Below are positions 5,460 to 20,462 of a DNA stretch of 24,000 nucleotides, in pieces. Numbering within the stretch: position 1 is the first letter of the stretch; each line of letters starts with the position of its first letter. The notes under the pieces were generated by a model, which saw only the letters and a program-made list of their open reading frames with translations, did no database searches and was not told where the DNA came from. The translations under genes were made by a program, and so were the position numbers. Location: contig LM994625.1 of assembly GCA_000752675.2 (NCBI GenBank), positions 130,734-154,733 on the forward strand, read 5' to 3'. Source of the stretch: a bacterium OL-1 (lineage in GTDB: Bacteria; Actinomycetota; Coriobacteriia; Coriobacteriales; Atopobiaceae).

Positions 5460-6616
5460 AGGCTCCGCACCCCCGCCAAAAGGCCTTTGAGACCCTCCTC
5501 TAGTTTTGACCGCGGACATGCCACGCACATTCTCAGGTACTTGTCATCGCCGTAGGCAGCACCGTTCATGATGCCAACATGCCCCACGTGCACCAACGCG
5601 TCCTGCAAACGCGCAGCGCTCACGCCAAGTGCCGAGGCGTCCATCCAAGCAAGATACGTCCCCTGAGGAACCGAGAACCTAATCTCCGGAATGTTCGTCG
5701 AGAGGAACTCCCCAATGGCATCCATGTTCGCACGAATGTAGGAGCGCAGGTCGTCGACGTACTGGTCGCACTTGCGATAACCTGCCGATTGAGCGTACAT
5801 TCCCAGGATGCTCGTGCTAGATAGCGCGTTGCGCTGCTTGAGCTCAAAGAGAAATTCCTCACGCAGGCCCTTCTCGGGAAAGAACGCGTACGACCCAATA
5901 AGCCCAGCGGTGTTGAACGTCTTCGATGACGAGCAGGCAAGCGCGGTGTTCTTCTCGGTAACCTCTGTGATAGGCGTATAGGGCACATCGCCAATGATGA
6001 TGTCGCGATGGATATCGTCTGAGATAAGGAAGGTGTTAGTCTCAGCGCATATCGAGGCAATTCTCTGCAGCTCGGCCTTCGTGAACACCTTGCCAGTTGG
6101 ATTGTGGGGGTTGGTCAGGAGAAACACCTTTGCAAGGGGATCAGTGCATGCCCGTTCGAGACCATCCCAGTCAATCTGGTAGTCATCCATGGCAGACGAG
6201 AGGCTAACAGGAACTAGTACCCTCCCGTTTCCGCGGATAGCGCCAAAGAACGCATCATACATTGGGGAGAAGGTTACAACCGCATCCCCAGGGTTTGACT
6301 TGAGCCTGATCAGCGTTGCGACCGTAAAGATAACGCTAGGACTGTAGACAATCCATTCGGGATTGACGCGTGCCCCTCCCCTGCGGTCAAACCACTCCAC
6401 GATGGGCTGCTTGAACCCATCGTGATTCCAACGCGTATAGCCAAGTATGGGGTGGTCGAGACGACTTTTAATGGCGGTGAGAATCTCATCGGGAACCGAA
6501 AAGTCAGCATCGGAAATGGAGAAGGGAATCACGTCTGAAGACCCAAAACGGTCTGCAGCGTAATCCCACTGTGTGCAATAGGTTCCATGCCTGTCAATGA
6601 CCTCATTGAAGTCCAT
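5456..6616 (-). CDS. MalY/PatB-family PLP-dependent C-S lyase (class I/II aminotransferase fold)
   Basis: 386 aa. The N-terminus DRHGTYCTQWDY and the motifs LLTNPHNPTGKVF and SSSKTFN (PLP lysine) are typical of MalY/PatB cystathionine beta-lyase-like enzymes. Confidence 0.85.
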   Translation of the reverse strand: MDFNEVIDRHGTYCTQWDYAADRFGSSDVIPFSISDADFSVPDEILTAIKSRLDHPILGYTRWNHDGFKQPIVEWFDRRGGARVNPEWIVYSPSVIFTVATLIRLKSNPGDAVVTFSPMYDAFFGAIRGNGRVLVPVSLSSAMDDYQIDWDGLERACTDPLAKVFLLTNPHNPTGKVFTKAELQRIASICAETNTFLISDDIHRDIIIGDVPYTPITEVTEKNTALACSSSKTFNTAGLIGSYAFFPEKGLREEFLFELKQRNALSSTSILGMYAQSAGYRKCDQYVDDLRSYIRANMDAIGEFLSTNIPEIRFSVPQGTYLAWMDASALGVSAARLQDALVHVGHVGIMNGAAYGDDKYLRMCVACPRSKLEEGLKGLLAGVRSL

Positions 6617-6648
6617 ATTGCGCTCGACCCCCTTGATTTCATTGGCGA

Positions 6649-6680
6649 GCTGGCACCCGCCTCACAGGACAGGTGCCAGC
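6649..6680 (-). other. Intercistronic perfect 9-bp-stem hairpin between PTS EIIBC and the C-S lyase gene
   Basis: GCTGGCACC (6649-6657) and GGTGCCAGC (6672-6680) are exact reverse complements with a 14-nt loop. It lies in the 98-nt gap between the two genes. Confidence 0.5.
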
Positions 6681-6714
6681 GTACCAGCAATCAGTTACAT
6701 CACGAGATGACGTC

Positions 6715-8154
6715 CTATGCGGCCTGCTGCGCCTTCTCGGCCTGGCGCTTAAGCCAGATTGACTTGAAGATAATGATCAGAGCCACGTTAAGCACAAGCC
6801 CCACTGCGACTGCGATGTAGTAGGCCCACGCAGGAGAAATCAGTCCGAGAAGAGGATCGAAGATGCCAATCCCGGGGGCAATGCGCTGCACACCCAGTGC
6901 CATGGAGATTGCGCCAGCAACGCCACCGGCAATGACGTTCGCAGAAATCATTGGCAGGGGAGCGGCAAGTGCATACGGGATGGCGGGCTCGGTTGCGACC
7001 GTAGCGCCAACGATAAGTGCAGGAATCGCAGCGTCACGCTCGCCCTCGGTGAACAGGGAAGGACGAATCCAAGTTGCGATGGCGGCTGCCATGGGCGGCA
7101 GGATGGTCACAACGCCAACGATGCCATACCAGTCGTAGACGCCAGAAGCAACCAGCGAGAAGGAGAAGAACCACGCAGCCTTATTGACAGGGCCACCCAT
7201 GTCGAAGGCAAGCATGGCGCCAACCAGGAAGGCACCCGCAAGCTTTGCACCCTCAGGAATACTCGAAAGCATGACGACCAGGCCGTTCATAAGGGCAGCG
7301 GCGATGGGTCCAATGAAGTAGTAGGTCAGAAGCGCAAAGACGAGCAGACTGACAAACGGGATAATAAGGAAACCCATCAGGCCGTGCATGTTCTTAGGAA
7401 GCTGAATCTTCCTCAGGGCGTTAGCAAAGTAGCCAACGAGGATGCCGATGATCACCGCGCCAATGAAGCCGGCACCCGTCTGGGTACCCAGCAGGTCAGC
7501 GCTGTTCGCAAGGTAGGAGCAGATGAACGCGGGGGCGAGTGCGGGCTTGCCGCCAATGGACTGTGCAATCCACGCGCCCATGACGGGAACCATGAAGGAG
7601 AAGCCCAGCGAACCAATGGTGTTGAGCACCCACGCTATGGATGCAACCTGGCCATCGGCCGGCTCGATGTTGGGGGCACCAAACTGAATCATGATCGAGC
7701 CGATGGCCATGAGAAGGCCGCCGCCAATCACGAACGGCAGAGCAGCGGAAACACCAGCCATCAGGTGGTTCATGAACCCGGTCACAGCGCCGGTGCCATT
7801 ACGACCACCGAGGTCAACCGAGGTGGCTCGATACAGCTTTGCCTCTCCCTCGAGATTGCCCATCACGGAGTCGATGTTCTTCAGGGCCTCGGACACCGGG
7901 AGCTCGATGACCTTTTTGCCATCGAAGCGCACACGGTCATCCTCGTCCATACCCTTGCCAAGGGCGAGGATGACATAGTCGGCATCCTTAATCTGGTCCT
8001 TGGTCAGCTGGTTCTCGACACCATTGGCACCCTGGGTCTCGACGTGAACTTCGTAGCCGAGGGCCTCACCTTTGGTTTTAATCGCCTCCGCCACCATGTA
8101 GGTGTGCGCGATGCCAGCTGGACAGTTGGTCACCGCAACGATCGATTTGGACAT
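6715..8154 (-). CDS. PTS fructose-family transporter subunit EIIBC
   Basis: 479 aa counted from ATG 8154, preceded by an AAAGGAG RBS. The N-terminal EIIB(Fru) motif is NCPAGIAHTYMVAEA, followed by a polytopic EIIC domain. Confidence 0.9.
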   Translation of the reverse strand: MSKSIVAVTNCPAGIAHTYMVAEAIKTKGEALGYEVHVETQGANGVENQLTKDQIKDADYVILALGKGMDEDDRVRFDGKKVIELPVSEALKNIDSVMGNLEGEAKLYRATSVDLGGRNGTGAVTGFMNHLMAGVSAALPFVIGGGLLMAIGSIMIQFGAPNIEPADGQVASIAWVLNTIGSLGFSFMVPVMGAWIAQSIGGKPALAPAFICSYLANSADLLGTQTGAGFIGAVIIGILVGYFANALRKIQLPKNMHGLMGFLIIPFVSLLVFALLTYYFIGPIAAALMNGLVVMLSSIPEGAKLAGAFLVGAMLAFDMGGPVNKAAWFFSFSLVASGVYDWYGIVGVVTILPPMAAAIATWIRPSLFTEGERDAAIPALIVGATVATEPAIPYALAAPLPMISANVIAGGVAGAISMALGVQRIAPGIGIFDPLLGLISPAWAYYIAVAVGLVLNVALIIIFKSIWLKRQAEKAQQAA

Positions 8155-8221
8155 TGCCCGCTCCTTTCTACTGGCCGACAACGGTCGGCACGCCATTCAG
8201 ATAAGCCCCGTCCCCTCGTCC

Positions 8222-8674
8222 TCAGGAGGCGTTGCCCGAAAGCACTCCATCGATTGCCTCGAATACCTCATCATCAGTGCCCTTGTTGAGTATCTCTACG
8301 AACTCGGGGTGCACGAGCTTGCGGCTAAGCGATGAGAGCAGCCGGAGGTGCTCAGAGTTCGCCCCGCTGGGAACCAGGATGGAGATAACGGTCTGGACCG
8401 GCTTGCCATCAATCGAGTTCCACTCGACAGGTTGGGACAGCCGCGCAAAGAGCACCGTGGGCTCAGAGACATCATCAGTCTTGGAATGAGGAATGGCGAT
8501 GCCTCCTCCAAAGCCAGTCGATGCCTCCTCCTCTCGCTCCTTGTAGTCACGCACTATTGCCTGCGCATCGTGGGCAAGCCCCAAGCTCACCGCACGTTCC
8601 GCGAGCCTCTCGAAAACCTCTTCCTGGGTTTTCACATCAATTGTTCCGAGAATGTTTCCGCGAGTGAAGAGCAT
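8222..8674 (-). CDS. PTS EIIA component (fructose/mannitol, PTS_EIIA_2 type)
   Basis: 150 aa counted from ATG 8674, preceded by a GGAGGGG RBS. It carries the phosphorylatable-His motif GIAIPHSK. Confidence 0.85.
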   Translation of the reverse strand: MLFTRGNILGTIDVKTQEEVFERLAERAVSLGLAHDAQAIVRDYKEREEEASTGFGGGIAIPHSKTDDVSEPTVLFARLSQPVEWNSIDGKPVQTVISILVPSGANSEHLRLLSSLSRKLVHPEFVEILNKGTDDEVFEAIDGVLSGNAS

Positions 8675-8747
8675 GTCCCCTCCCCTTCCACATGGCCTCA
8701 CCCAGCCGACGGCCAGTAAATTGAGGTGCTCCGCTTGGACTTGCCTG

Positions 8748-8900: not shown

Positions 8901-8991
8901 AAGCGGACTAAGCGACTGATGATTGCGACGTTATCTCTCCTCCGTGGCCACTGATACAATTCCTCTACCGCCTCCGAGGAGGGCAGCGCCC

Positions 8992-9312
8992 ATGGACGAG
9001 AAATGCAAAGATTCCAGCGACCGCACGACCATCGACCTCTCTCAGGAGGGAAGACCCTCCCTCGCCGTGAGCGACGTCCGAATCAAAAGCATGATCTACA
9101 CCGTTCGCGGCGAGCAGGTCATGCTCGACAGCGACCTCGCGAAGCTGTACGGCGTGGAGACCAGAACGCTCAACCAAGCCGTCACGAGGAACCCCGACCG
9201 CTTCCCGGAGCGCTTCTGCTTCAGACTCACAAAAAAATGGGATGGTGATCCGCGGGCATGTCCGTCACGATATGGACGCACCCAAAGACCGAACTCACTG
9301 GACGCGACGTAG
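8992..9312 (+). pseudogene. Truncated or frameshifted ORF6N-domain (KilA-N-like DNA-binding) gene
   Basis: IYTVRGEQVMLDSDLAKLYGVETRTLNQAVTRNPDRFPERFCFRLTK matches the ORF6N domain. Similarity stops right after an A7 run at about 9230-9236, and the remaining reading frame looks unrelated. Confidence 0.6.
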
Positions 9313-9436: not shown

Positions 9437-9724
9437 GTGAAGAGGACCAAGCTGAACGAGCGCAGCATCCCCGTTGACGACGACGGGAGGCCCTGCTCCC
9501 GCAGCAACAGGCGCAGGCGGGTGTGCAGACACTACGTCGGGCCCCACTTCCACGAGCTGCAGCGCACGAGCATCTCGCTATTGATCGCAAACTGCGTGGA
9601 CTTCCGAATCGCCAGCAAGCAAGCCGGACACAGCAAAGTCTCTACCACGATGGACATCCACAGCGATGCCTTCTCCGAAAACGACAGAACATCCGCGAAC
9701 GTGGTTGGAAAGTTTCTAAACTAA
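9437..9724 (+). pseudogene. Tyrosine recombinase (phage integrase family) C-terminal remnant
   Basis: FHELQRTSISLLIANCVDFRIASKQAGHSKVSTTMDIHSDAF aligns to the integrase box II region (HDLRHT...GHSxxxTTxxxYxH). The HxxR motif reads HELQ and the catalytic Tyr position is His. Most of the protein is missing. Confidence 0.7.
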
Positions 9725-9765
9725 ATAACAAGGTACCGAACGGCGTCGAGAGCCGAACGGTACCT
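9721..9765 (-). terminator. Rho-independent terminator of the block B operon
   Basis: AGGTACCGAACGGC/GCCGAACGGTACCT forms an 8-bp plus 4-bp stem with a 2x2 internal mismatch at 9731-9765. On the minus strand it is followed by TGTTATTTAGTTT. Confidence 0.6.
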
Positions 9766-9798
9766 CAAAGGAGTTTCCCACCGCAAGAATTGCAATAG

Positions 9799-11439
9799 TT
9801 AGCTCAACACAGCACCGGTCTTCGCAGAAGCCACCTGCTTCGAGTAACGTTCGAGCAGATGTCCTCCGTTCTCGTGAATAACCGGCTCCCACGATGCGCG
9901 ACGTGCACTCAGCTCCTCGTCTGAGACGTTCAGCTCGATGAGGTTCTTGTTGAGGTCAACATGGATTTCGTCGCCATCCCTCACGAGGGCGATTGTCCCT
10001 CCCTCAAACGCCTCGGGGCAGAGATATCCCACCGAAAGGCCGCCAGAAGCGCCTGAGAAGCGACCATCCGTAATAACTGCCGAATTCGGAATGCCCTTCA
10101 TTATCTCGGTGACGCGGTGCAGTTCCTTCATTCCGGGTCCCCCCTTGGGGCCCTCGTAACGCACGACTACACCGGTGCCAGGCTTGATGGCATGCGCATT
10201 GTACGCAGCAAACGCTTCCTCCTCAGATTCGAAGACCTGGGCCTTGCCTGTCCAAACATGCTGCTCGGCCGGCACGGCGCTGGTTTTCACGAGTGCACCT
10301 TCGGGAGCAAGGTTCCCGTAAAGCACCTGTATTCCATTGCAAACTGAATCTGAATCATCCTGCGTCCGGATGACCGAGCGGTCAACAGGAACGTCCCTGT
10401 CGAGGTTCTCACCCAGCGTCCGTCCAGTAACGGTCATCGCCGAGGTGTCGAGGTCCCCCTCTATGGTCTTGAGCACAGCGGGAACTCCGCCCGCCTTGTA
10501 GAGGTTGATGCAGCTGATGTCACCATTGGGGACGACGTTGCACACGACGGGAGCGTGGCTAGTGATGTCGGCAACCTTGTCCCAGGTGACCTCCAGTCCA
10601 AGCTCATGCGCGAGGGCCGGAAGATGCACCATCGCGTTGAGGGACCCGCCGATAGAGGCAAGGAGCTTTACCGCATTGTCAAGCGCCCCCTGGGTCATGA
10701 TGTCGGAAGGGCATATCCCCTTGCGGACAAGCTCGACGACACGCGCACCGGTCTGCCGTGCGCTGAATCTCCGTTGACTTGTTGAGCTCGGCCAGAGGGC
10801 ACCGTACGGAAGCATCATACCAAGCGCTTCCGAGAGGCATCCCATGGTGTTCGCGGTGCCCAAGAACGGGCAGATGCCAGGCCCGGTGTAGTACTTGAGC
10901 GTTCCCTCTATCACGTCGCGCTCCGAAGCCTCACCACGCAGAAACGCCGCACGAAGAACCTTGGATTGCGAGGGCTTTATCTCGTCATAGCAGGGTCCTG
11001 CGGTAACGATGGCGGAGGGGAGGTTAATACGCGCTGCAGCGTTGAGCATACCCGGGATGATCTTGTCGCATGATCCCATGTAGACGACTCCGTCGAAGAC
11101 CCCCTCTCCCACAATCATGGCCTCGCAGGAGTCGGTGATGAGGTCGCGGTGCGGCAGGCAGTAGCGCATACCGGGATGCCCTTGGGCAACACCATCGCAC
11201 ATACCAATAGTGTTGAACTCTATTGGCTCCCCACCGGCCTCGAGCACGCCCTTCTTAACCTCGGCAGCAAGCTGTCGGAGTGGCTCGTGGCCGGGGCAGA
11301 CCTCATTCCAGCTGTTTGCGATCGCAATGAGCGGCTTATCGGGGTCCTCCAGCGAGTCAATCGCAATTCCTGCCGACGCAAGGTGCGCCTTTGATATGGC
11401 CCTCTGGAATGGTTCGAGCTGATCGATCTTACGTTGCAT
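9799..11439 (-). CDS. IlvD/Edd-family dehydratase (sugar-acid or phospho-sugar-acid dehydratase candidate)
   Basis: 546 aa with a GAAAGGGA RBS. Family motifs are NSWNEVCPGH, GMCDGVAQGH, GSCDKIIPGM and GICPFLGTANTM, including three Fe-S cluster Cys positions. Confidence 0.85.
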   Translation of the reverse strand: MQRKIDQLEPFQRAISKAHLASAGIAIDSLEDPDKPLIAIANSWNEVCPGHEPLRQLAAEVKKGVLEAGGEPIEFNTIGMCDGVAQGHPGMRYCLPHRDLITDSCEAMIVGEGVFDGVVYMGSCDKIIPGMLNAAARINLPSAIVTAGPCYDEIKPSQSKVLRAAFLRGEASERDVIEGTLKYYTGPGICPFLGTANTMGCLSEALGMMLPYGALWPSSTSQRRFSARQTGARVVELVRKGICPSDIMTQGALDNAVKLLASIGGSLNAMVHLPALAHELGLEVTWDKVADITSHAPVVCNVVPNGDISCINLYKAGGVPAVLKTIEGDLDTSAMTVTGRTLGENLDRDVPVDRSVIRTQDDSDSVCNGIQVLYGNLAPEGALVKTSAVPAEQHVWTGKAQVFESEEEAFAAYNAHAIKPGTGVVVRYEGPKGGPGMKELHRVTEIMKGIPNSAVITDGRFSGASGGLSVGYLCPEAFEGGTIALVRDGDEIHVDLNKNLIELNVSDEELSARRASWEPVIHENGGHLLERYSKQVASAKTGAVLS

Positions 11440-11494
11440 TATGGTTTCCCTTTCCTGTAAGACAATGAGAGCAAGGAAGTGCTTTTCGGAGGGA

Positions 11495-12400
11495 TTACGA
11501 CCAATCTAGGACGTGCATGGGATTCTCCACGAGCATCCGCCAGTAGTCCTGTTCGTCAATCTCCTTGAGGAGTTGCTCTTTGAGGCCTGTGAGGATGTAG
11601 TCAAGGCCGGGCGTACCACCATATGACTTGAAGTAATTCTTCTTGCCCATGTCTCCTGCTAGGCAAACTTGGCCGCCGAAGCCAGAGCAAACAAAGTCCT
11701 TCAGTAGCGACACCCGGACGGAGTCATGCCCCACCAAATCCCTACCAACATGATCGAAGGAGAGGAACGCTCCTCTTTTCATCAAGGTTTTCATGTAGGC
11801 GGGGTCAAGAGTTAGGTCCGTGTGCGAGAGGCACACGTGCGCCAAGTTCATACCCTCAGCCTCAAGCAGGTCGAGTTGCTCCATGCCCATCGTGCCCTTG
11901 TCGCAATGCGTAATAATTGGGAGATGATGCCTGGACGCAACTTGGGCGGCGATTCTAATCGCCCGCCTCTCCCGCTCCGTGACCTTTCCCAAGGACGTGC
12001 CAATCTTGACAGCCGCCGGCTTGACCTTCGAAAAGCCTATTCCTTCTTCGATCTCGCGTGTCAGCTCGCGAGCAATCTCTGCATCAGACAGACTGTCAAA
12101 CCAACGCGGAAGCCAAAGGTCCTTGTGAAATCCCGTGACGCAGAGCACGTTGATGCCAGCTTGCTGAGATATCAAGCGGAGAGCTTCGGGATTTCGACCA
12201 TATGCAAGTGGCGTCATGTCCACGATGGTGCAGCCACCCGCCGCCTTGAACAGCTCGGCCTCCTCGATGCTTTTCGAGGGCACGTCGAGAGTGTAATCGT
12301 AGTAGCATTCGAGCTCGTCGGGAGAGACGTAGAGGTGCTCATGAATGTAGGTTGTCCCCAGGTCTTGGGGGTCAATCTCTCCGAGGACGGTGTTGATCAT
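11495..12400 (-). CDS. Phosphotriesterase-family (COG1735, PHP-like) amidohydrolase; probable phospho-sugar lactonase
   Basis: 301 aa. Binuclear-metal ligand positions all appear present: HEH (TYIHEHL), Lys in AAVKIG, His in ITHCD, His in LSHTD and Asp in LAGDMG. The start lies 6 nt after the dgoD-like stop. Confidence 0.8.
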   Translation of the reverse strand: MINTVLGEIDPQDLGTTYIHEHLYVSPDELECYYDYTLDVPSKSIEEAELFKAAGGCTIVDMTPLAYGRNPEALRLISQQAGINVLCVTGFHKDLWLPRWFDSLSDAEIARELTREIEEGIGFSKVKPAAVKIGTSLGKVTERERRAIRIAAQVASRHHLPIITHCDKGTMGMEQLDLLEAEGMNLAHVCLSHTDLTLDPAYMKTLMKRGAFLSFDHVGRDLVGHDSVRVSLLKDFVCSGFGGQVCLAGDMGKKNYFKSYGGTPGLDYILTGLKEQLLKEIDEQDYWRMLVENPMHVLDWS

Positions 12401-12406
12401 GGCTAC

Positions 12407-13552
12407 CTACCATTCCGCTATGGTTCCGTCATAGTTCTTCCAGCTGGGATTTCTCCAGACAAGGCCCTCGGCAGAAACCGCCTTTACTATCTCCTCGTCG
12501 ATTTCCAGTCCCAGCCCAGGCCCGCTGGGAACATCAACGTATCCGTCCGAATACTGAAAGACCTCTTTGTTCTTAACAAAGTCGAGAAGATCGAAGCCCT
12601 GATTGTAATGGATGCCTAAGCTCTGCTCCTGAATGAACACGTTGGGTGAGCACGCATCGACCTGAAGGGTTGCAGCAAGAGCGATGGGCCCATAGGGAGC
12701 GTGAGGTGCAGCAGCCATATCGAACGCCTCGGCCATCGCGATAATCTTACGCATCTCGAGGATGCCCCCGCAGAGCGACACGTCTGGCTGGATAATATCA
12801 ACTGCCCCCTGCACAAACAGGCGCTTGAACTCCCAGCGCGAATACAGGCGCTCTCCCGTGGCGATAGGGATGGGTACCTCCCGGGAGATGTCATCAAACG
12901 ATTCCCAGTTCTCCGGAAGAACAGGCTCCTCAATGAACATGGGGTGATACGGGGCAAGGGCATACGCGAGAACCTTTGCCATTGGCTTGTGGACGCGGCC
13001 ATGGAAGTCGATACCGATTTCGATTTCGTTCCCGCAAGCACTCCGGATTGACTCTACCCTGTCGACAACCTGCTGAACCTTGTCGTAGGTATCAACGTAA
13101 TGAAGCTCTTCCGTTGCGTTCATCTTCACGGCGCGGAAACCCTTCGCCAGCCTGTCCGCGGCGCCATTCGCGACATCAGACGGCCGGTCCCCGCCAATCC
13201 AGGAATATACCCGCACGCGGTCGCGCGCCTTCCCTCCCAGAAGCTGCCAAACTGGGACGCCGAGAGCCTTACCCTTGATGTCCCATAGCGCCATCTCGAG
13301 TCCAGAAACAATGGTCCCGTTAATCGGGCCACCACGAAAGAAGGATCTGTGCAGCTCTTGCCAAATCCTCTCAATCTCGAAGGGATCGCGACCGATGATT
13401 CGCTGGGAAAGCTCCCTTGCTCCCTCGACGACTGTTCGCGTTTTGGTCCCTGAGACCATTTCTCCCCACCCGCTGACACCCTCGTCTGTCTCGACCTTGC
13501 AGAAAATCCATCTTGGTTTTACCTCGTAAATCTGAACTCCGGTGATCTTCAT
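12407..13552 (-). CDS. dgoD: D-galactonate dehydratase-like enolase-superfamily enzyme
   Basis: Similarity to E. coli DgoD (recalled from memory) runs end to end: MKIT..., ETDEGV.GWGE, ALWDIKGK, VWQLLGG, DFHGRV, MFIEEP, ATGER, IIQPD, APH.PYGPIALAA, QEQSLGIHYN, LLDFVKNKE, WRNP and the C-terminal AEW. I prefer ATG 13552 (GAGGA 5 nt upstream) over ATG 13558. Confidence 0.9.
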   Translation of the reverse strand: MKITGVQIYEVKPRWIFCKVETDEGVSGWGEMVSGTKTRTVVEGARELSQRIIGRDPFEIERIWQELHRSFFRGGPINGTIVSGLEMALWDIKGKALGVPVWQLLGGKARDRVRVYSWIGGDRPSDVANGAADRLAKGFRAVKMNATEELHYVDTYDKVQQVVDRVESIRSACGNEIEIGIDFHGRVHKPMAKVLAYALAPYHPMFIEEPVLPENWESFDDISREVPIPIATGERLYSRWEFKRLFVQGAVDIIQPDVSLCGGILEMRKIIAMAEAFDMAAAPHAPYGPIALAATLQVDACSPNVFIQEQSLGIHYNQGFDLLDFVKNKEVFQYSDGYVDVPSGPGLGLEIDEEIVKAVSAEGLVWRNPSWKNYDGTIAEW

Positions 13553-13633
13553 TGCCATCCTCGCTATTCGTTGGAAAGAGAGGGGCAGAGCGTGATGCTC
13601 CGCCCCTCATGCGGGTACTGCGTGTATAGGGAA

Positions 13634-14902
13634 CTAGGCAAGGAAGCCTGCGAGCCACTGCAGGCAGAAGCCGATAAGGTGCTCGCCAGCGTCCTCGGTG
13701 GAGATGAACTGCATGCCATCGGGGAGTACGAAGCCGCCGGCAATCGCGAGCTGGGTATGAACCGGCGCAAGGGCGGTAGCAATCCACAGCACGATGCAGG
13801 TAATAATGGTCGTGGAGAGAATACCACGGAAGATGTTGCCCTTACCAAACGCAACAGGCCACGCAGCGAGCCACATCGCCTGGTAAGCAATATCGGCGAT
13901 GGGGAGAAGCTTGTTGCCGGGCAAGACTGCAGCAAGCAGGAGCGTGATAGGAACCATGATGATTCCAACCGTGATGGCGGACTCATTGGCGACGGTCAGG
14001 GCAGCGTCGATACCCATTACGAAGTCGGTACCGGGGAAGCGCTTCTGGAGAATCTCCTTCACGGCGTTTGCGAAAGGAAGGAGACCTTCCATGAGAATCT
14101 GCATCATCTTGGGGGTGAGGACCATCGTTGCGGAGGTGCTCATGGCAACGATAAGGACCTTGTCAATCGAGTCGCCTGCCAGAAGGCCGATTGCCGCGCC
14201 GATGATGAAGCCCATGAACATGGGTTCACCGACGAAGCCGAACTTCTCCTGAACTCCCTTGGGGTTGATGTCGATCTTGTTAATGCCGGGGATGACATCC
14301 CAAAGCTTGTTCAGCGCGTATGCAACCGGAGCCCAGATTGCGGAGTTAGAGGTCGGGAAGTTGACACCCTCGAGCTCGAAGTAATCTTCGACGACAGGAG
14401 TGGTCCAGTCCGCAATCTTGATTGTGATGATGAAGTCAACAGCAGAGGCGATGATGGAAATCCAGGGATTGCCATTGGTGGCATACCAAACCAGAGCGCC
14501 TGTGAAAATGAAGTGGTTATAAGACCAGAAGTCGACCATGACCGTCTTGGTCGTCTTGGTAATCAACATGAGGGCGTTCACGCCGAGAACGACGAAGACA
14601 ACAATTGCGGCAAGGGGGAACGCCCAGGTCGCAGCGGCCCTAGCGGGCCATCCCACATCCATGATGGAGGTCTGGATTCCCCAGTTCGCAACCATGTTGG
14701 TTACGGAATCGGCGACCTGGGCAACAAACCAGTTGATCACCATGTTGACGCCCGCGAAGCCAATACCCACCAGCAAGGCAGACTTTAGTAAAACATTGAT
14801 TTTCACACGGAAGATGAGGCCGAGAATCAAGATGATGATTGGCATCATGACCATAGGACCCATCGAAGCGATGGTTTGGAGACCAGTTACCACAAAGTCC
14901 AT
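13634..14902 (-). CDS. PTS galactitol-family EIIC permease (GatC/SgcC-like)
   Basis: 422 aa, polytopic, with an AGGAGG RBS. The overall sequence has EIIC-GAT family character (my recognition, not a search). Confidence 0.8.
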   Translation of the reverse strand: MDFVVTGLQTIASMGPMVMMPIIILILGLIFRVKINVLLKSALLVGIGFAGVNMVINWFVAQVADSVTNMVANWGIQTSIMDVGWPARAAATWAFPLAAIVVFVVLGVNALMLITKTTKTVMVDFWSYNHFIFTGALVWYATNGNPWISIIASAVDFIITIKIADWTTPVVEDYFELEGVNFPTSNSAIWAPVAYALNKLWDVIPGINKIDINPKGVQEKFGFVGEPMFMGFIIGAAIGLLAGDSIDKVLIVAMSTSATMVLTPKMMQILMEGLLPFANAVKEILQKRFPGTDFVMGIDAALTVANESAITVGIIMVPITLLLAAVLPGNKLLPIADIAYQAMWLAAWPVAFGKGNIFRGILSTTIITCIVLWIATALAPVHTQLAIAGGFVLPDGMQFISTEDAGEHLIGFCLQWLAGFLA

Positions 14903-14932
14903 TGCGTCTACCTCCTAGGTTGCAGTTTTCGC

Positions 14933-15232
14933 TTACGCCTTAAGCTGAGCCTCTATTTCGGCCTTTGCCTTATCCTCGCCAACTCCCGTGACGAAGGCAG
15001 TCCCCTTAATTACGGGCGCATCTCCCGTCTCCACACCCTTGAGTTTGCCCGTAGGAACAATGAAATCCACGTGATTCGAAGCGAGGTTGCCCTGAACCTC
15101 GGAGAACTTGCACTGAATAATGCGAGGCTCAGGCGCACCACAAGCAGCGGCAATTTCCTTCACCTTGGCAACCGCCATAGTCGACGTAATCATCGATGAG
15201 GCGCAGCACACGATAACCGTCTTTTTCTCCAT
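14933..15232 (-). CDS. PTS EIIB component (galactitol/lactose-type small IIB)
   Basis: 99 aa with an N-terminal Cys motif KKTVIVCCASSMITS and a GGAAGGG RBS. Confidence 0.8.
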   Translation of the reverse strand: MEKKTVIVCCASSMITSTMAVAKVKEIAAACGAPEPRIIQCKFSEVQGNLASNHVDFIVPTGKLKGVETGDAPVIKGTAFVTGVGEDKAKAEIEAQLKA

Positions 15233-15245
15233 GCTTTTACCCTTC

Positions 15246-15692
15246 CTAATTGAATAGCTCTATTACCTGTTGCGCGGAATCGGCGTCAGCGATTTGTGCA
15301 ACGAGTTCCTGGTTTTGCAAGACACCCATAATTTTCTGAAGGGCTTCAAGCTGGTGCTCGGGCTTATCGAACACGGAAAGAACAACCACGCTTACCGGAA
15401 TCGACTCATCAGAGTCCTCCATGTTGTGCCACTCGACTGGCTTCTTTAGCGTTGCGACCAGCAGCTGAGTGGTATTTGCGTACTGGTAGTCGGTGTGGGG
15501 AATTGCGACGTTGATGCTTCCGAGGGCGAGCCCCGTCGGATATTCCCTCTCCCGGCTCACCAGATGTTCCTCGTAGGATTGCTTAACCTTGCCCTCGCCA
15601 AAGAGGTGGGTTGATACCAGGTGAAGAACTTCCTGGCAGCTCTCTGCGTCAATGTTGAGGAGAATGTCCTCTGGAAAAAGATTGAGTACCAT
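15246..15692 (-). CDS. PTS EIIA component (PTS_EIIA_2, GatA/mannitol-fructose type)
   Basis: 148 aa with the His motif NVAIPHTD and a GGGAGG RBS. Confidence 0.8.
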   Translation of the reverse strand: MVLNLFPEDILLNIDAESCQEVLHLVSTHLFGEGKVKQSYEEHLVSREREYPTGLALGSINVAIPHTDYQYANTTQLLVATLKKPVEWHNMEDSDESIPVSVVVLSVFDKPEHQLEALQKIMGVLQNQELVAQIADADSAQQVIELFN

Positions 15693-15714
15693 CGGAACTT
15701 AGCCTCCCTACCCG

Positions 15715-16344
15715 CTACCAACGGACCTTCTGCTCGAACGCCTCAATGTCGGCCTTAAGCGCACCCTCATCCATCTCGATGATGTGCTTGGGATCGAAGA
15801 TGCCGGACCCGATGCCGGCATATGAGGCACCTTCGTCGAAGAACTCCTGGCAGTTGTCACCATTCACGCCGCCAACAACCATGATTGGCATGGGATTAAG
15901 AGGGGCCTGGATGTCCTTGATGTACTTTGGGCCAAGCGTGCCTGCGGGGAAGACCTTCACGATGTCCGCGCCCATCTCGAACATGTTCCAGACCTCAGAA
16001 GGCGAGAAGGCCGAGGGAACGGTTAGAAGGCCGTTTGCCTTGCAGATGCTAAAGATCTCCTCGGTAAAGCAGATTGGGGAGAGCGCGAAGCGAGCCCCCG
16101 CCTCGACGGCCGCGTAAGCACGCGCAGTAGAGATGACGGTTCCCGCGCCGACGAGAACGTCATCGCCAAACTCATTTGCGACTTTCTCGATGGTCTGGGC
16201 CGCACCGGGCGTGTTCATCGCAACCTCAACGGCGCCCAGCTTGGTTCCGACCATGCTCTTCACAACGCATCGAACTTGTTCGTAGTTGTATCCGCGAAGA
16301 ATGACCGTCACCTTGGGAAACTTTGTAAGACTGAGGTCTATCAC
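15715..16344 (-). CDS. eda: 2-dehydro-3-deoxy-phosphogluconate/phosphogalactonate (KDPG/KDPGal) aldolase family
   Basis: 209 aa with a GTG start at 16344 and AGGAGGG 5 nt upstream. It has the Eda-type motifs VEVAMNT (Glu), GAGTV and the Schiff-base Lys in VKVFPA. Confidence 0.85.
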   Translation of the reverse strand: MIDLSLTKFPKVTVILRGYNYEQVRCVVKSMVGTKLGAVEVAMNTPGAAQTIEKVANEFGDDVLVGAGTVISTARAYAAVEAGARFALSPICFTEEIFSICKANGLLTVPSAFSPSEVWNMFEMGADIVKVFPAGTLGPKYIKDIQAPLNPMPIMVVGGVNGDNCQEFFDEGASYAGIGSGIFDPKHIIEMDEGALKADIEAFEQKVRW

Positions 16345-16700
16345 GTCTTCCCTCCTGCTTTCGATATTTGTGATGCAAGCTAGGAATGTATTTATCTTGC
16401 TTGTTGCTCATATTTGAACATAGTTTCATCACATTAACAAGCAGTGTTTTAGAAAAGGCATTATTTGTATTTAATTAGGGGTATTTGTGGCATTTTAACT
16501 GCGTGTTTGAAATTTAATATGTATATTTTTCTTTATGAACGATTATTACTACATAGTTTCTACATATAATTTTGCTCACCAGACACACGTATGTCTGCGA
16601 GTAATTGATTAATTTTACTATGAAGGTGAATAACCTAATTCTTCGGAGTGGAGGCCCTCCGGCGCTTGTGCATTGCTCCTCAAGAGCATGGCACCATGCC
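16345..16700 (-). promoter_or_regulatory. AT-rich leader and promoter region of the block B operon, with phased direct repeats and a palindrome
   Basis: GC is about 30% in my count of 16441-16500, against over 50% in the flanking genes. CTACATA-GTTT-CTACATA sits at 16549-16566, ACATAGTTTC recurs at 16418-16427 and 16551-16560, and the palindrome CAGACA-cacgta-TGTCTG is at 16580-16597. Several -35/-10-like pairs are possible and I cannot resolve them by eye. Confidence 0.55.
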
Positions 16701-17711
16701 CTACTCGCTATCTGCCGACTGTCCCATCACCATCATGGACTCATACAGGTGCTGGGGGGTTATGGGATCCGGTGGTTCGACGCCAGACTTAACAGCAAGG
16801 ATGTTGTCCACGACGATATTGCCCATCCGGCGGCTACTCTCGTAGGTATTGCCCGCCACGTGCGGGGTAACGAGCACGTTGTCGTAGTCGTAGTAGGGCT
16901 GGTGCTCTGGCGGCTCCTTGGAGAAGACGTCTATCGCAAAGCCTGCAAGCCTCCCCGACTGGAGCGCGCTGTCAAGCGCGCCATGGCGCACGATCCCCGC
17001 GCGGGCGGTATTGATGAGAATGGCACCCGGTTTCACAAGCCTAAGCTCGCGTGCACCAATGAGGTTCTTCGTCGACTCATCAAGCGGAAGGTGAATCGTA
17101 ATGATGTCTGATCTTCTCAGCAGGTCATTCAGTGTGGTGTAGACAACGCCATAAACCGTTGCCTCATTGCGTTGCACAATGTCGTAGCCCAGGATGTCCA
17201 TGCCGAAACCCATGGCCCTGCGGGCGACGGCGCATCCAATCTGCCCGACGCCGATGATGCCGATGGTCTTGCCGTATAGGCTCGTGCCCGTCAGCTTGGT
17301 CCAGCCGCCCGACCGCGTGTCTATGACCATCTGCGAGATGTGCCGCTCCAAGTCGAGAATGAGCCCAAACGTGAAGTCCGCAGTCTCCTCGCGGTTAGAC
17401 GCAGGGGCATACGTGACCTCGATGCCCAGGTCACGGGCCTCAGCCACGTCCACACCGTCAAAGCCGACACCGTAGCGTGCGATGATCTTTAGCTTCTTGA
17501 GCCGCCGGATAACGCTAGCGGGCAGGTCATCGTTGCCGAGAATGATGGCATTGGCATCTCCCGCAAAGTCCAACATCTCCGCCTTTGTCAGCGGACGCCC
17601 ATAGGGATTGAGTCGAACCTCGCAGCCGGCAGCCTTAAGACGCTCGATGGGTTCGTCCGAACCGCGCCCAAAGGTCACAGCAGTAGAGCAAACAACCCAA
17701 TTGGAACCCAT
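16701..17711 (-). CDS. D-isomer-specific 2-hydroxyacid dehydrogenase (phosphoglycerate dehydrogenase/GhrB-like), NAD-binding
   Basis: 336 aa with the Rossmann motif GIIGVGQIGCAVARRA. The catalytic-region motifs ILINTARAG and TPHVAG are present, and GGAGAA precedes the ATG at 17711. Confidence 0.85.
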   Translation of the reverse strand: MGSNWVVCSTAVTFGRGSDEPIERLKAAGCEVRLNPYGRPLTKAEMLDFAGDANAIILGNDDLPASVIRRLKKLKIIARYGVGFDGVDVAEARDLGIEVTYAPASNREETADFTFGLILDLERHISQMVIDTRSGGWTKLTGTSLYGKTIGIIGVGQIGCAVARRAMGFGMDILGYDIVQRNEATVYGVVYTTLNDLLRRSDIITIHLPLDESTKNLIGARELRLVKPGAILINTARAGIVRHGALDSALQSGRLAGFAIDVFSKEPPEHQPYYDYDNVLVTPHVAGNTYESSRRMGNIVVDNILAVKSGVEPPDPITPQHLYESMMVMGQSADSE

Positions 17712-17874: not shown

Positions 17875-17905
17875 GGGGTTGAGTTGCCCGGCAACTGAGC
17901 TGCGT
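17875..17905. repeat. Dispersed motif copy GGGGTTGAGTTGCCCGGCAACTGAGCTGCGT, with an exact 15-bp palindromic core
   Basis: AGTTGCC-C-GGCAACT at 17882-17896 is a perfect palindrome. It has the same orientation as the other copies. Confidence 0.65.
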
Positions 17906-18045: not shown

Positions 18046-18139
18046 GAAAACAGCCAGCTGACAAGACGGGCCGGTAACAACGGGCGAGTGAGCCGGACGG
18101 GTGCAAACGTGATTGAGTTGCCCGGTTATGAGCCTATGT
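18046..18139. repeat. Long copy of the dispersed repeat, right copy
   Basis: 18072-18125 matches 413-465 in 48 of 54 hand-aligned columns. GAAAACAGCC at 18046-18055 matches GACAACAGCC at 392-401. It ends in GTGATTGAGTTGCCCGG. Confidence 0.7.
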
Positions 18140-18247: not shown

Positions 18248-18511
18248 CTAGGCCTCCTGCGCAAAGCGCCCCTCGAAGATGCCTTTAACCTGTTCGGTCG
18301 TGAGAGACCCACGCTCGTCAGCAACGCGCTTGCCGTAATCGAGCTGGGCAAGGAGGGTCTTCTCGGCCTCATTGCGCTCGTAGTCGGGGATGTCCTGAAT
18401 GACGTAGCGCCCGCGCCCATTCTTAGTGAGGAACACCGGCGATCCCTGCGCCACCTCGTCGAGCACTGCCGTGTAAGAACGGAGGTCGGATATCGGCCTG
18501 ATGTTGGGCAT
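18248..18511 (-). CDS. Type II antitoxin, Phd/YefM family
   Basis: 87 aa. MPNIRPISDLRSYTAVLDEV..GSPVFLTKNGRGRYVIQDIPDYE is the typical Phd/YefM N-terminal fold signature. Confidence 0.8.
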   Translation of the reverse strand: MPNIRPISDLRSYTAVLDEVAQGSPVFLTKNGRGRYVIQDIPDYERNEAEKTLLAQLDYGKRVADERGSLTTEQVKGIFEGRFAQEA

Positions 18512-18575: not shown

Positions 18576-18607
18576 AAAACCCTGACCTGTTTTCGCAGGT
18601 CAGGGTT
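18576..18607 (-). terminator. Rho-independent terminator downstream of the tRNA
   Basis: AAACCCTGACCTG (18576-18588) and CAGGTCAGGGTTT (18595-18607) form a perfect 13-bp stem with a 6-nt loop. On the minus strand it is followed by TTTTTGCTTT. Confidence 0.75.
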
Positions 18608-18615
18608 TGAATTTA

Positions 18616-18692
<77 letters not shown>

Positions 18693-18816: not shown

Positions 18817-19614
18817 CTACCCCAGCTCCTCGAGGATCCTGCGCATCTCCGCCTGCACGCCGTGCTCGACGTTGGTGCCCACGACCTTCTCGGCAATCTG
18901 CTTCACCGCGTAGCGCGCGTTGCCCATCACGTACGGATGCCCCACGTAGCGCAGCATCGCGTAGTCGTTCATCGAGTCGCCAAACGCCACCACGTCCGCA
19001 CGGTCAATGCCGTAATAGCCAAGCAGCGCCTCCAACCCCGTGGCCTTGCTTATCCCGCGCGGCGTGACGTCAATCCAGGTGTTACCAGACGGCATGAACG
19101 AGAAGACATCGCCCAGCTCGCGCTCGAGCACGTAGACCATGTCCATGATCTCGTGCGGGCGGTCGTAACAGATGGCTGCCTTGATAATGCTCACGTCCGG
19201 CGACGGCGGGTCGTACACGCGCTCGGCGTTGGGAAGGTCCTTGTCCAGCTCGCGCACATAGCTGCTCTGGTCGTTAAGCAGGTAGGTGTGCGTGCGATCA
19301 TAGAGCACCAGGTGGAAGCAGTCGAACTCCTGGCACGTGCGGAAGAGCCTCAGCACCGCGCGCGTCGAGAAGACCTCGCGGTCGAGAAGCACGCCGTCGG
19401 CATAGACCTGCGTGCCAAGGGACCCCACGTAGTCCATCCTGTCGGCAACCGGTTCGAACATCCAACGCAGCGTCTCGTACCTACGCCCGGAGCTTGCACA
19501 GAAGATGACCCCGCGGTCGCGCAGCTTCTCGATGAGCTCGAAGGTCTCCTCGGGGAGCAGCGAGTTCTCGTCGAGCAGGGTTCCGTCCATGTCAGCCGCA
19601 ATCAGCCGTACCAT
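18817..19614 (-). CDS. Cof-type HAD-IIB family hydrolase (sugar-phosphate phosphatase-like)
   Basis: 265 aa with motif I (DMDGTLL) and motif IV (GDSMNDYAML). The start overlaps the upstream stop (TAATG). Confidence 0.85.
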   Translation of the reverse strand: MVRLIAADMDGTLLDENSLLPEETFELIEKLRDRGVIFCASSGRRYETLRWMFEPVADRMDYVGSLGTQVYADGVLLDREVFSTRAVLRLFRTCQEFDCFHLVLYDRTHTYLLNDQSSYVRELDKDLPNAERVYDPPSPDVSIIKAAICYDRPHEIMDMVYVLERELGDVFSFMPSGNTWIDVTPRGISKATGLEALLGYYGIDRADVVAFGDSMNDYAMLRYVGHPYVMGNARYAVKQIAEKVVGTNVEHGVQAEMRRILEELG

Positions 19615-20462
19615 TAGCCCTCCCTTAGGAACGCCGGGACCTCATGCGCACGCGCCGCACGGGCAATCTCGAACAGTGCGTCCGCCACGCCCTCGTCCGC
19701 AGACGCGCCGCAGCTAAAGTTGCAGATTCCCTTGACCTCGTCCGTCGCGTTTGCCACAGCGACGGAGTAGTGGACCTCGCTCAGGATCGCAACGTCATTG
19801 CCCGAGTCCCCAAAGACCACTACCTCGTCGCGCGTGGCGCCCACCGCATCGAGGATGGTGTCGAGCGCAGAGGCCTTGTTGACCCCACGCGGCAGCACGT
19901 CGAACCAGTTGGGAACCGACATGATGGTCTCCACCTCGGGGCATGCCTCGGCAACGAGCTGCTGGCAGTAGGCATGGCGCTTCTCGTCACCGTTGCAGGC
20001 GATGGCTGCGGCAATGAAGTCGATGTTGGGAACGTCCTCCACGCGACCGCCGTTGAAGTGGACGAGCCTCTCGTACTTGCTCATCTCCTCCTCGGAGGCA
20101 CCCACCGCGTAGCCAGGGTTAAAGAGGTTGGTGTCCAGGGGGAAGCAGACAAGGAACATGCCACGCTCGGGCTTGAGCGCGTCAGCTACGCGCTGGAGCC
20201 AGTCGTGCGGTATCGAGTAGGTCCACACGTCGCGCCCGTCCACGCGCACGCGCTTGCCGTTGGACATGATGCCCGTCATGAAGCAGGACTCGTCCATGTG
20301 GAAGAAGCGCATGAGCTCCACGTAGTCGCGCCCAGTGTCCGGGCCAAAGTGAATCCCGACGTTGATCACGTCGTGGATTGCCTCGAGCGTGCGCGGCGAG
20401 ACGTGGCGCGCGCCAAACGGGATGAGCGTGTTGTCCATGTCAGAGAGAACGAGCTTGATCAA
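19614..20462 (-). CDS. Cof-type HAD-IIB family hydrolase
   Basis: 282 aa with motif I (DMDNTLI) and motif IV (GDSGNDVAIL). Confidence 0.85.
   Translation of the reverse strand: MIKLVLSDMDNTLIPFGARHVSPRTLEAIHDVINVGIHFGPDTGRDYVELMRFFHMDESCFMTGIMSNGKRVRVDGRDVWTYSIPHDWLQRVADALKPERGMFLVCFPLDTNLFNPGYAVGASEEEMSKYERLVHFNGGRVEDVPNIDFIAAAIACNGDEKRHAYCQQLVAEACPEVETIMSVPNWFDVLPRGVNKASALDTILDAVGATRDEVVVFGDSGNDVAILSEVHYSVAVANATDEVKGICNFSCGASADEGVADALFEIARAARAHEVPAFLREG

Follow-up and report, generated by a model that had tools for sequence, protein, structure and literature searches.

A putative PTS-fed, kinase-independent De Ley-Doudoroff pathway variant on a mobile cassette found in Atopobiaceae

The 24,000-nucleotide stretch of DNA analyzed here as a whole (the window in the following) originates from contig LM994625.1 of the bacterium OL-1, a member of the Atopobiaceae, and carries seven tightly spaced open reading frames (ORFs) on the minus strand between positions 9799 and 16344. 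These encode an aldolase of the 2-keto-3-deoxy-6-phosphogluconate/2-keto-3-deoxy-6-phosphogalactonate (KDPG/KDPGal) family, the IIA, IIB and IIC proteins of a galactitol-type (Gat) phosphotransferase system (PTS), a DgoD-like dehydratase, a phosphotriesterase-family (PTE) hydrolase and an IlvD/Edd-family dehydratase. The question raised by this locus is how the substrate of the aldolase would acquire its phosphate. The initial annotation of this DNA had proposed that the PTS supplies it in place of a DgoK/KdgK-type kinase, and this central idea is strengthened by the recurrence of the cassette in kinase-less form, by its PTS-responsive regulators and by a signature particular to its dehydratases. 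From sequence comparisons, we regard as fairly probable a PTS-fed, kinase-independent De Ley-Doudoroff pathway variant borne on a horizontally transferred cassette. D-galactonate or its lactone is put forward more tentatively as the substrate. The same reserve applies to the complete scheme, in which the Gat PTS would phosphorylate galactonate or its lactone and two clades, derived from DgoD and from IlvD, would each have been recruited as 6-phospho-D-galactonate dehydratases in an undescribed mobile pathway.

The intergenic gaps of the operon measure 22, 13, 30, 75, 6 and 55 nt, in agreement with the packed minus-strand genes separated by 6 to about 80 nt reported initially. The family assignments of all seven proteins, for which profile searches had been suggested as a check, are upheld by Pfam and NCBIfam matches (Table 1). 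The single shared terminator was recovered as a hairpin with a T-rich tail located 3' of the last gene: the segment 9715-9800 folds at -33.5 kcal/mol (z = -5.4) and none of 200 shuffled sequences is as stable. This assignment is based on folding because the sigma-70 promoter and terminator scan of the window performed no better than on shuffled sequence. The proteins of the window are 98-100% identical to those of a human-gut Atopobiaceae metagenome-assembled genome, with Tractidigestivibacter and Olsenella as close relatives. The window is not enterobacterial, a megablast search of E. coli genomes having yielded no match. Since the gene set recurs in two phyla, the seven-gene cluster is real and not a chance arrangement.

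Recurrence of the cassette and the kinase question

Neighborhoods were defined as the DNA surrounding homologues of the PTE, DgoD-like and IlvD-like enzymes. A constant core composed of the aldolase, IIA, IIB, IIC and one acid-sugar dehydratase is found in approximately 25 loci of Coriobacteriia, Lactobacillales and Clostridia. The combination of aldolase, PTS and DgoD-like enzyme is present in Atopobiaceae, Collinsella, Olsenella uli, Oenococcus oeni, Loigolactobacillus, Lacticaseibacillus rhamnosus, Lacticaseibacillus paracasei, Latilactobacillus curvatus, Enterococcus faecium, Lachnospiraceae, Gemmiger/Subdoligranulum and Caproicibacter. Three types of arrangement can be described. Type A, organized as (PRD regulator)-aldolase-IIA-IIB-IIC (about 422 aa)-DgoD-PTE, is that of the window, Collinsella, O. 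uli, O. oeni, Loigolactobacillus and several Clostridia, the gene order being shuffled in the latter. Type B lacks the PTE and reads PRD regulator-aldolase-IIA-IIB-IIC (about 458 aa)-DgoD-small protein with two transmembrane (TM) helices; it is hosted by L. rhamnosus, L. paracasei and conjugative plasmids of L. curvatus and E. faecium. Type C, devoid of both DgoD and PTE, reads 2-hydroxyacid dehydrogenase (HADH)-aldolase-IIA-IIB-IIC (459 aa)-IlvD-like and belongs to another Atopobiaceae lineage (L027). Two more high-GC loci display the orders aldolase-PTS-DgoD-PTE-HADH (L029) and aldolase-PTS-DgoD-HADH (L030), with IICs 76-77% identical to that of type C.

Two of the cassette loci are plasmid-borne: the copy of E. 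faecium p1818-a sits between copies of IS1216, and the L. curvatus plasmid is conjugative. The cassette is therefore mobile and horizontally transferred, and moves as a self-contained module. In Firmicutes, a PTS-controlled regulator with PRD and EIIA domains, either MtlR/LicR-like or of the sigma-54 LevR type, stands at its head, and ptsI lies directly 3' of the cassette in two loci. This PRD regulator is missing from the Coriobacteriia loci. Full-text literature searches returned no description of a PTS-fed galactonate cassette or pathway.

Kinases were searched for by tblastn using three DgoK and two PfkB-family sugar kinase queries. No DgoK or PfkB kinase was found in the window, where Pfam scans of the remaining large ORFs detected no kinase either, and the operon thus lacks a DgoK/KdgK-type kinase as initially annotated. 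The same five queries found none in or beside any PTS-type cassette searched; the sole kinase match among these loci is a PfkB located 4.5 kb away, in a separate fructose-type cassette (L018). Whether the gene combination recurs without a kinase had been left as a question, and the approximately 25 loci, none of which has a kinase inside the cassette, answer it in the affirmative. Canonical DgoD genes, for their part, adjoin DgoK and aldolase genes in E. faecium (L023), on an E. coli plasmid (L024) and on a Deinococcus plasmid (L025). Pfam scans of the window operon revealed no MFS or GntR gene, as would correspond to the DgoT permease and the DgoR regulator. No galactonate permease (DgoT, GntP) accompanies the examined cassettes, and no polyol-phosphate dehydrogenase, galactitol-1-phosphate dehydrogenase or tagatose-pathway genes are found near them.

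As a separate observation, each of seven E. faecium megaplasmids (hits H8-H14) shows similarity to DgoD at two places, of which one is presumably PTS-linked and the other canonical and kinase-linked.

Predicted route and conserved enzymes

In the proposed route, the Gat PTS would import a galacto-configured C6 aldonic acid, most likely D-galactonate, together with its 1,4-lactone where a lactonase is present. Phosphorylation of the terminal hydroxyl (O6) by the PTS would yield 6-phospho-D-galactonate or the 6-phospho-lactone, and any phospho-lactone would be opened by the PTE, as judged from its homology to Lmo2620. The DgoD-like (or IlvD-like) enzyme would then dehydrate 6-phospho-D-galactonate, which would be a new substrate for an enolase-superfamily enzyme, to KDPGal. 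The aldolase, which belongs to the KDPG/KDPGal family and whose stereochemistry is predicted, would finally cleave KDPGal, giving pyruvate plus glyceraldehyde-3-phosphate. The galacto configuration is suggested by the nearest characterized relatives of the dehydratase, by the galactitol family of the PTS and by the KDPGal-type determinants of the aldolase. At C2-C5, galactitol has the same configuration as D-galactonate.

The DgoD-like protein scores 616 bits on the galactonate dehydratase equivalog NF010624 (cut-off 311) and retains the catalytic residues D184, H186, E211, E236, D259, H286 and E311. Its identity amounts to 52-60% with canonical DgoDs (55-60% with 3RR1) and to 72-84% with PTS-linked DgoDs of other genera. 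In order to characterize the latter, 17 context-verified PTS-linked DgoDs and the best 120 database matches were compared with six canonical DgoDs, three of them with an adjacent DgoK and three without. A clade signature, invariant at nearly all positions, is common to the PTS-linked enzymes and absent from all six canonical ones. It comprises K14 (P in canonical DgoDs), S36-G37-T38-x-T40 (V/I-E-G-x-A), R57 (K/D/Q), R64 (D), N80-G81 (L-M), H153-Y154 (Q/G-I), L/M262 (H), A287 and Y289 beside the catalytic H286 (C and L), F322 (N/T/A) and N375-Y376 (H-A/E). The net effect is a loss of acidic side chains and a gain of basic and hydroxyl ones, a shift as expected for a phosphate pocket. According to the topology of the enolase superfamily, these changes would fall in the loops of the capping domain and beside catalytic residues at the barrel end, sites that set specificity in enzymes of this kind. 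The DgoD-like enzyme is thus a predicted 6-phospho-D-galactonate dehydratase. An anionic C6 group is accepted by the DgoD-type enzyme SfcF, which was experimentally shown to dehydrate 6-deoxy-6-sulfo-D-galactonate, the gluco isomer being handled by an IlvD/Edd-type enzyme (PMC12421959).

The Gat-family IIA, IIB and IIC are separate proteins, and the Pfam match of IIB is weak (20 bits). EIIA contains His66 in the AIPH66TD motif, as read from the sequence, and EIIB displays an N-terminal Cys9/Cys10 motif. All three score best on galactitol models without reaching the cut-offs of the galactitol-specific ones (GatA, 78 vs 139; GatB, 49 vs 95; TIGR00827 for IIC, 369 vs 542). The IIC of the window shares 58-73% identity with its counterparts in PTE-containing Firmicutes cassettes, and 36-41% with the subtypes of about 458 aa. 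Neither a mannose-family PTS (EIIA-man, EII-Sor, EIID) nor an aminotransferase-fold lyase was detected by Pfam in the operon.

These results bear on another explanation, which we consider unlikely: the DgoD-like enzyme would dehydrate free D-galactonate, a kinase encoded elsewhere would phosphorylate the product and the PTS would serve to take up some unrelated polyol or sugar, for instance galactitol. The NF010624 score, the complete set of catalytic residues and the preference of IIA, IIB and IIC for galactitol models all speak for it, as do the E. faecium plasmids carrying two DgoD-like places or a DgoD-DgoK cluster (L023). The cassettes, however, lack a DgoT/GntP permease, a polyol-phosphate dehydrogenase and tagatose-pathway genes, the IIC does not attain the galactitol cut-off, and the PTS, dehydratase and aldolase have been transferred together between phyla, also within an IS1216-flanked unit. 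The PTS-linked DgoDs moreover form a separate clade whose signature is missing in the kinase-linked DgoDs. Finally, the L. paracasei pan-genome contains six 'galactitol' PTS cassettes, and the presence of such cassettes (sugar island B) is uncorrelated with growth on galactitol (PMC3716772).

Returning to the PTS-fed pathway, the aldolase scores under all NCBIfam cut-offs (137 vs 207) and nearly equally on the KDPG and KDPGal models; its top PDB match is the KDPGal aldolase of E. coli (2V81, 1.8e-26, vs 4.4e-25 for 1WA3). Residues R17, E40 and K130 are conserved. Using the stereo-determinants of KDPGal and KDPG aldolases taken from PMC4915726, I15 and V157 align with the KDPGal determinants I12 and V154, and the Pro/Thr found in Eda are not present. 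The same holds for all cassette aldolases, which display Ile at the I12 position and Val, Ala or Ile at the V154 position, without Pro/Thr. The aldolase of the window, which is 44% identical to that of the E. faecium DgoD-DgoK-aldolase cluster, is therefore predicted to be of the KDPGal type.

Accessory modules and composition of the locus

The IlvD-like protein does not reach the cut-offs of the IlvD models (NF002068, 550 vs 644; TIGR00110, 526 vs 618) nor that of the Edd model TIGR01196 (268 vs 708). The motifs C48, C124-D125-K126 and C190 (cluster/Mg) are present, together with S462, the catalytic Ser of the GRFSG motif. Its gene is located at the end of PTS/aldolase cassettes and not in an ilv operon. 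The 120 matches listed in the homologue search are all from Atopobiaceae and at least 90% identical, without distant contexts; one of them (P0332) led to the type-C cassette. In L027/L028, an orthologue with 90% identity takes the place of DgoD and PTE, and it is the only dehydratase of type C. The gene is missing in Collinsella and in all Firmicutes versions. In an Olsenella uli-like locus (L019, 12382-13074), it is cut to a 230-aa N-terminal fragment downstream of the PTE, the remaining cassette being intact, which suggests that a redundant dehydratase is being lost. Because loci with IICs 76-77% identical pair with either the IlvD-like (L027) or the DgoD-like enzyme (L029, L030), the most plausible reading is that the two dehydratases stand in for each other functionally, as a result of non-orthologous displacement, and do not act in consecutive steps. 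The single linear route in which both had been placed initially thus has to be revised in view of sister cassettes where the IlvD-like gene is missing, truncated or substituted for DgoD and PTE. In the window, the IlvD-like enzyme might do the same job as the DgoD-like enzyme or act on a close epimer such as 6-phosphogluconate.

Compared with the type-C frame, the window displays 84% identity for HADH, 77.5% for the aldolase and 90% for the IlvD-like enzyme, as opposed to 33% for IIA, 28% for IIB and 40% for IIC; its PTS matches type A (73% identity with the Oenococcus IIC). This split indicates that a PTS-DgoD-PTE module replaced the PTS of a HADH-aldolase-PTS-IlvD locus, or the reverse. In the former case, the IlvD-like gene would be inherited from an older Atopobiaceae frame of this composition into which the module was swapped. 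The window locus is, on these identities, a mosaic, an aspect which the initial annotation had missed along with its horizontally transferred nature.

The IlvD-like enzyme and the aldolase are also relevant to a second alternative, a PTS-fed Entner-Doudoroff shunt. D-gluconate or D-glucono-1,5-lactone would in that case enter as 6-phosphogluconate or its lactone, the PTE would act approximately as a 6-phosphogluconolactonase, the dehydratases would be Edd-like and the aldolase would cleave KDPG. We hold this to be improbable. Gluconate and galactonate share the C2/C3 configuration, and bifunctional gluconate/galactonate dehydratases exist in the superfamily (NF040790, matched by the DgoD-like protein with 263 bits); the IlvD/Edd family includes Edd and the sulfo-gluconate dehydratase, and the aldolase scores nearly equally on both models and on 2V81 and 1WA3. 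Against these points, each cassette aldolase is of the KDPGal kind at both stereo-determinant positions (PMC4915726), the dehydratase finds its closest relatives among galactonate-specific DgoDs, the PTS is of the galactitol family and the IlvD-like protein is far from Edd, as seen from its TIGR01196 score.

In the preferred pathway, the PTE would serve lactone entry. Its top PDB match is Lmo2620 (3PNZ, E = 1.7e-45) and it scores 102 bits on the phospho-furanose lactonase model NF045706 (cut-off 630). The metal ligands H20, H22, K132, H165, H193 and D250 are present and align with those of Lmo2620 and Php. The phosphate ligands of Lmo2620, which we take to be K242, K244, R275 and Y278 (K, K, R and Y at these positions of the 3PNZ sequence), align with R220, L222, K253 and Y256. 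The basic/basic/Tyr trio R220, K253 and Y256 is kept in type in 117 of 117 PTE homologues, the K244 position being occupied by Leu. The PTE is a predicted phospho-aldonolactone lactonase and an optional module, missing in the cassettes of L. rhamnosus, L. paracasei, E. faecium, L. curvatus, L030 and L027. Because of these absences, lactone entry would be an optional branch and not the core of the pathway. The succession of lactone, phospho-lactone and lactonase proposed initially is accordingly retained for its homology to Lmo2620 and abandoned as the general route, and its Ula precedent (a PTS followed by a lactonase) fits only where the PTE is present.

Two candidate explanations related to the PTE were discarded. 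A 422-aa IIC importing lactones with the PTE, vs an IIC of about 458 aa importing acids without it, is contradicted by L029, which combines a 456-aa IIC with a PTE; L030 has the same IIC subtype and no PTE, which is thus optional whichever the PTS subtype. The type-B gene following the DgoD-like gene encodes a conserved protein of 160-200 aa with two predicted TM helices, a basic C-terminus and no Pfam or NCBIfam match, and for the TM helices and lack of family match this protein of about 200 aa was rejected as a lactonase replacing the PTE.

The HADH gene, overlooked in the initial annotation, is located 356 nt upstream of the aldolase gene and is co-conserved. In Collinsella, O. uli and L027, orthologues 58-91% identical lie on the upstream side of the cassette; L029 and L030 carry them downstream. 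This recurrence on either side of the cassette in different genomes argues for a functional link. Speculatively, the HADH could be a 2-keto-aldonate(-6-phosphate) reductase widening the substrate range. A 2-hydroxyacid dehydrogenase with 38% identity to it is encoded on the E. coli plasmid pRHB31-C01_3 (L024, 6572-7504), 3' of a canonical dgoR-dgoK-dgoA-dgoD-MFS operon, and constitutes a second, independent tie of the family to galactonate genes.

KguD-type 2-keto-6-phosphogluconate reductases belong to the Pfam family of the HADH, a point in favor of some other acid sugar as substrate. This last alternative, covering a 2-keto-aldonate reduced by the HADH (a PTS version of Pseudomonas Kgu), a phosphorylated pentonolactone (Lmo2620/MS53_0025) and a plant or host lactone, is likewise improbable: the HADH does travel with the cassette in three arrangements and characterized PTE-family phospho-lactonases do act on C5 lactone phosphates (PMC10971088), the PTE of the window scoring only 102 bits on their model, but Firmicutes cassettes do without either of HADH and PTE and therefore neither defines the core substrate, a pentonate would yield glycolaldehyde phosphate, which is no substrate of KDPG-family aldolases, and a DgoD-like dehydratase suggests a hexonate that has the C2-C4 stereochemistry of galactonate.

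Several points weigh against the PTS-fed, kinase-independent pathway. The DgoD-like protein passes the galactonate dehydratase cut-off while being 52-60% identical to true DgoDs, and could act on free galactonate; the active-site position of the signature residues is deduced from superfamily topology, and D-gluconate, given the C2/C3 stereochemistry which it shares with D-galactonate, may be an alternative substrate. The phosphate-ligand positions of Lmo2620 are presumed ones, and at two of them K/R is found in E. coli Php as well. The window locus has no adjacent regulator. Several E. faecium plasmids contain two DgoD-like places and others the canonical DgoD-DgoK cluster (L023); a kinase may act in trans in some hosts, the search having covered the window and the cassette loci. 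We know of no PTS yet shown to phosphorylate an aldonate beyond gluconate or glucosaminate-type substrates.

D-galactonate is a gut nutrient for E. coli, and to our knowledge neither lactic acid bacteria nor Coriobacteriia have a described route for it. If the proposed pathway is true, 6-phospho-D-galactonate dehydratase would be a new activity, arisen in two unrelated folds, and hundreds of annotations as 'galactonate dehydratase', 'dihydroxy-acid dehydratase', 'aryldialkylphosphatase' and 'galactitol PTS' would have to be corrected. A function would also be provided for one orphan 'galactitol' PTS cassette of L. paracasei and L. rhamnosus, and a nutrient-use module would be riding on conjugative, IS1216-flanked E. 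faecium plasmids. Several hosts that can be cultured and manipulated genetically, L. rhamnosus, O. oeni and E. faecium among them, would allow the hypothesis to be tested directly.

Genetic surroundings and comparison with known systems

The coordinates of the features are collected in Table 1. Within the operon, the gap between the IIC and DgoD-like genes (13559-13633) folds at -29.3 kcal/mol (z = -4.1; none of 200 shuffled sequences is as stable), and its hairpin might serve for attenuation or for stabilizing the mRNA, and thereby set the transporter-to-enzyme ratio. The aldolase gene starts with GTG, 7 nt after an AGGAGG ribosome-binding site. The boxes repeated upstream of it, TATGTAG(A/T)AA / ACATAGTTTC, form a candidate operator for a regulator; related regions exist in L014 (5576-6067), L019 (6820-7193) and L027 (6643-6904), and the sequence upstream of the aldolase gene has kept a TATGTAGAAA box in Collinsella, O. 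uli and L027. The block extending from HADH to IlvD is surrounded by a tRNA gene, an antitoxin ORF, an integrase remnant, an ORF6N-domain ORF and direct repeats, which together resemble a scar left by an integrative element. The initial annotation mentions neither these borders nor the hairpin within the operon. The repeat core CGGGCAACTCAA has three matches vs 0.14 expected, a number reached in none of 100 shuffles. The Rfam search of the window returned the tRNA only.

Two neighboring clusters are reported as side observations. In the second PTS cluster of the window, genes for an aminotransferase and a peptidase stand alongside those of a fructose-like PTS, which is an unusual mix. Upstream of the tRNA, three paralogous Cof-type HAD sugar phosphatases are accompanied by another M20 peptidase; in the type-C locus L027, a HAD gene (37% identity to those of the window) lies directly 3' of the IlvD-like gene.

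Table 1. Position of the features discussed in the text (window coordinates unless a locus is given)
Feature	Position	Strand	Evidence or remark
Class I KDPG/KDPGal-family aldolase	15715-16344	-	PF01081
PTS EIIA, Gat/fructose-mannitol type	15246-15692	-	PF00359 (PTS_EIIA_2), 107 bits; top NCBIfam model GatA
PTS EIIB, Gat type	14933-15232	-	PF02302, weak (20 bits); GatB model NF007643, 49 bits, E = 6e-13, under cut-off
PTS EIIC, Gat family, 422-aa type A subtype	13634-14902	-	PF03611 (EIIC-GAT), 227 bits
DgoD-like enolase-superfamily dehydratase, PTS-linked clade	12407-13558	-	MR_MLE N- and C-terminal domains; NF010624
PTE-family (COG1735) binuclear-metal hydrolase	11495-12400	-	PF02126, 169 bits
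IlvD/Edd-family dehydratase	9799-11439	-	PF00920 and PF24877, both domains full length
D-isomer-specific 2-hydroxyacid dehydrogenase (HADH)	16701-17711	-	PF02826 and PF00389; under every NCBIfam equivalog cut-off
Intrinsic-terminator-like hairpin with T-rich tail, operon end	9715-9767	-	Folding
12-bp perfect GC-rich hairpin in the 75-nt IIC/DgoD-like gap	13580-13608	-	Folding
AT-rich candidate promoter/operator region of the aldolase-led operon	16345-16700	-	Repeated TATGTAG/ACATAG boxes, 16411-16434 and 16544-16567
tRNA-Met (CAT) bordering the block	18616-18692	-	ARAGORN; Rfam tRNA, 66 bits
Terminator after tRNA-Met	18577-18608	-	Terminator scan
Phd/YefM-like antitoxin ORF and truncated toxin stub	~18295-18510	-	
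Tyrosine integrase C-terminal remnant by the operon end	9437-9724	+	Weak PF00589, E = 0.006, C-terminal catalytic part
ORF6N-domain ORF beside the integrase remnant	8923-9312	+	
Imperfect direct repeat of ~30 nt, core CGGGCAACTCAA	9326-9337 (distal, -), 17879-17890, 18113-18124		
Second PTS cluster, whole	2327-8701	-	
FrvA-like IIA	8222-8701	-	Second PTS cluster
FrvB-like IIBC	6715-8196	-	Second PTS cluster
Class I/II aminotransferase	5456-6616	-	Second PTS cluster
HTH/Mga/EIIA regulator	3705-5528	-	Second PTS cluster
M20 peptidase	2327-3754	-	Second PTS cluster
Cof-type HAD sugar phosphatases	18817-19614, 19614-20462, 22515-23351	-	
M20 peptidase	21167-22444	-	HAD cluster
Type-B small 2-TM protein	L017 11186-11785; L018 11258-11860; L020 9173-9664; L021 9204-9806		

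Among known systems, the De Ley-Doudoroff pathway (E. coli dgoRKADT) shares with the window a dehydratase of the DgoD family (52-60% identity), a class I aldolase that is predicted here to be of the KDPGal type and, again as predicted, the formation of pyruvate and glyceraldehyde-3-phosphate. It differs in that the window locus lacks DgoK, DgoT and DgoR, the Gat PTS replacing both transport and phosphorylation, and in that dehydration would act here on the 6-phosphate instead of the free acid, through a separate dehydratase clade. The Entner-Doudoroff pathway (Edd/Eda) likewise couples an IlvD/Edd-family dehydratase, for which the substrate is a 6-phospho-aldonate, to a PF01081 aldolase, but the IlvD-like protein of the window is much closer to dihydroxy-acid dehydratases (550 vs 268 bits) and its aldolase carries KDPGal- and not KDPG-type determinants. 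In the Ula system (UlaABC and UlaG), a PTS imports a lactone and a cytoplasmic lactonase acts on the phospho-lactone, as proposed here, and we take the Ula IIC to be of the same Pfam family (EIIC-GAT) as that of the window. UlaG, however, has a metallo-beta-lactamase fold and not that of a PTE, and the downstream steps are a decarboxylation and an epimerization to xylulose-5-phosphate. Among the phospho-sugar lactonases of the PTE family (Lmo2620/Bh0225 and MS53_0025/MAG_6390), Lmo2620 is the closest solved relative of the PTE of the window, which retains its metal ligands and has residues of like type at three of the four presumed phosphate-ligand positions. The substrates of the Lmo2620/MS53_0025 group are C5 1,4-lactone 5-phosphates, whereas the PTE is only about 35-40% identical to these enzymes and the lactonase step is optional.

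The sulfofucolytic and sulfoglycolytic Entner-Doudoroff pathways (PMC12421959) resemble the window by their DgoD-type (PF13378/PF02746) and IlvD/Edd-type (PF00920) dehydratases and by a lactonase that is optional in some clusters. Unlike the window, they process a sulfonate taken up by an ABC transporter, form the lactone by means of an intracellular dehydrogenase and employ an HpcH-type PF03328 aldolase. A similar pathway logic is offered by the Salmonella Dga system (DgaABCD-DgaE-DgaF), in which a 6-phospho sugar acid formed on PTS uptake is processed first by an elimination enzyme and then by a KDPG-family aldolase (PMC9529869), no kinase being needed. Dga relies on a mannose-family PTS and a pyridoxal phosphate-dependent ammonia-lyase acting on a gluco amino sugar acid, whereas the window combines a Gat PTS with an enolase-superfamily and/or IlvD-family dehydratase.

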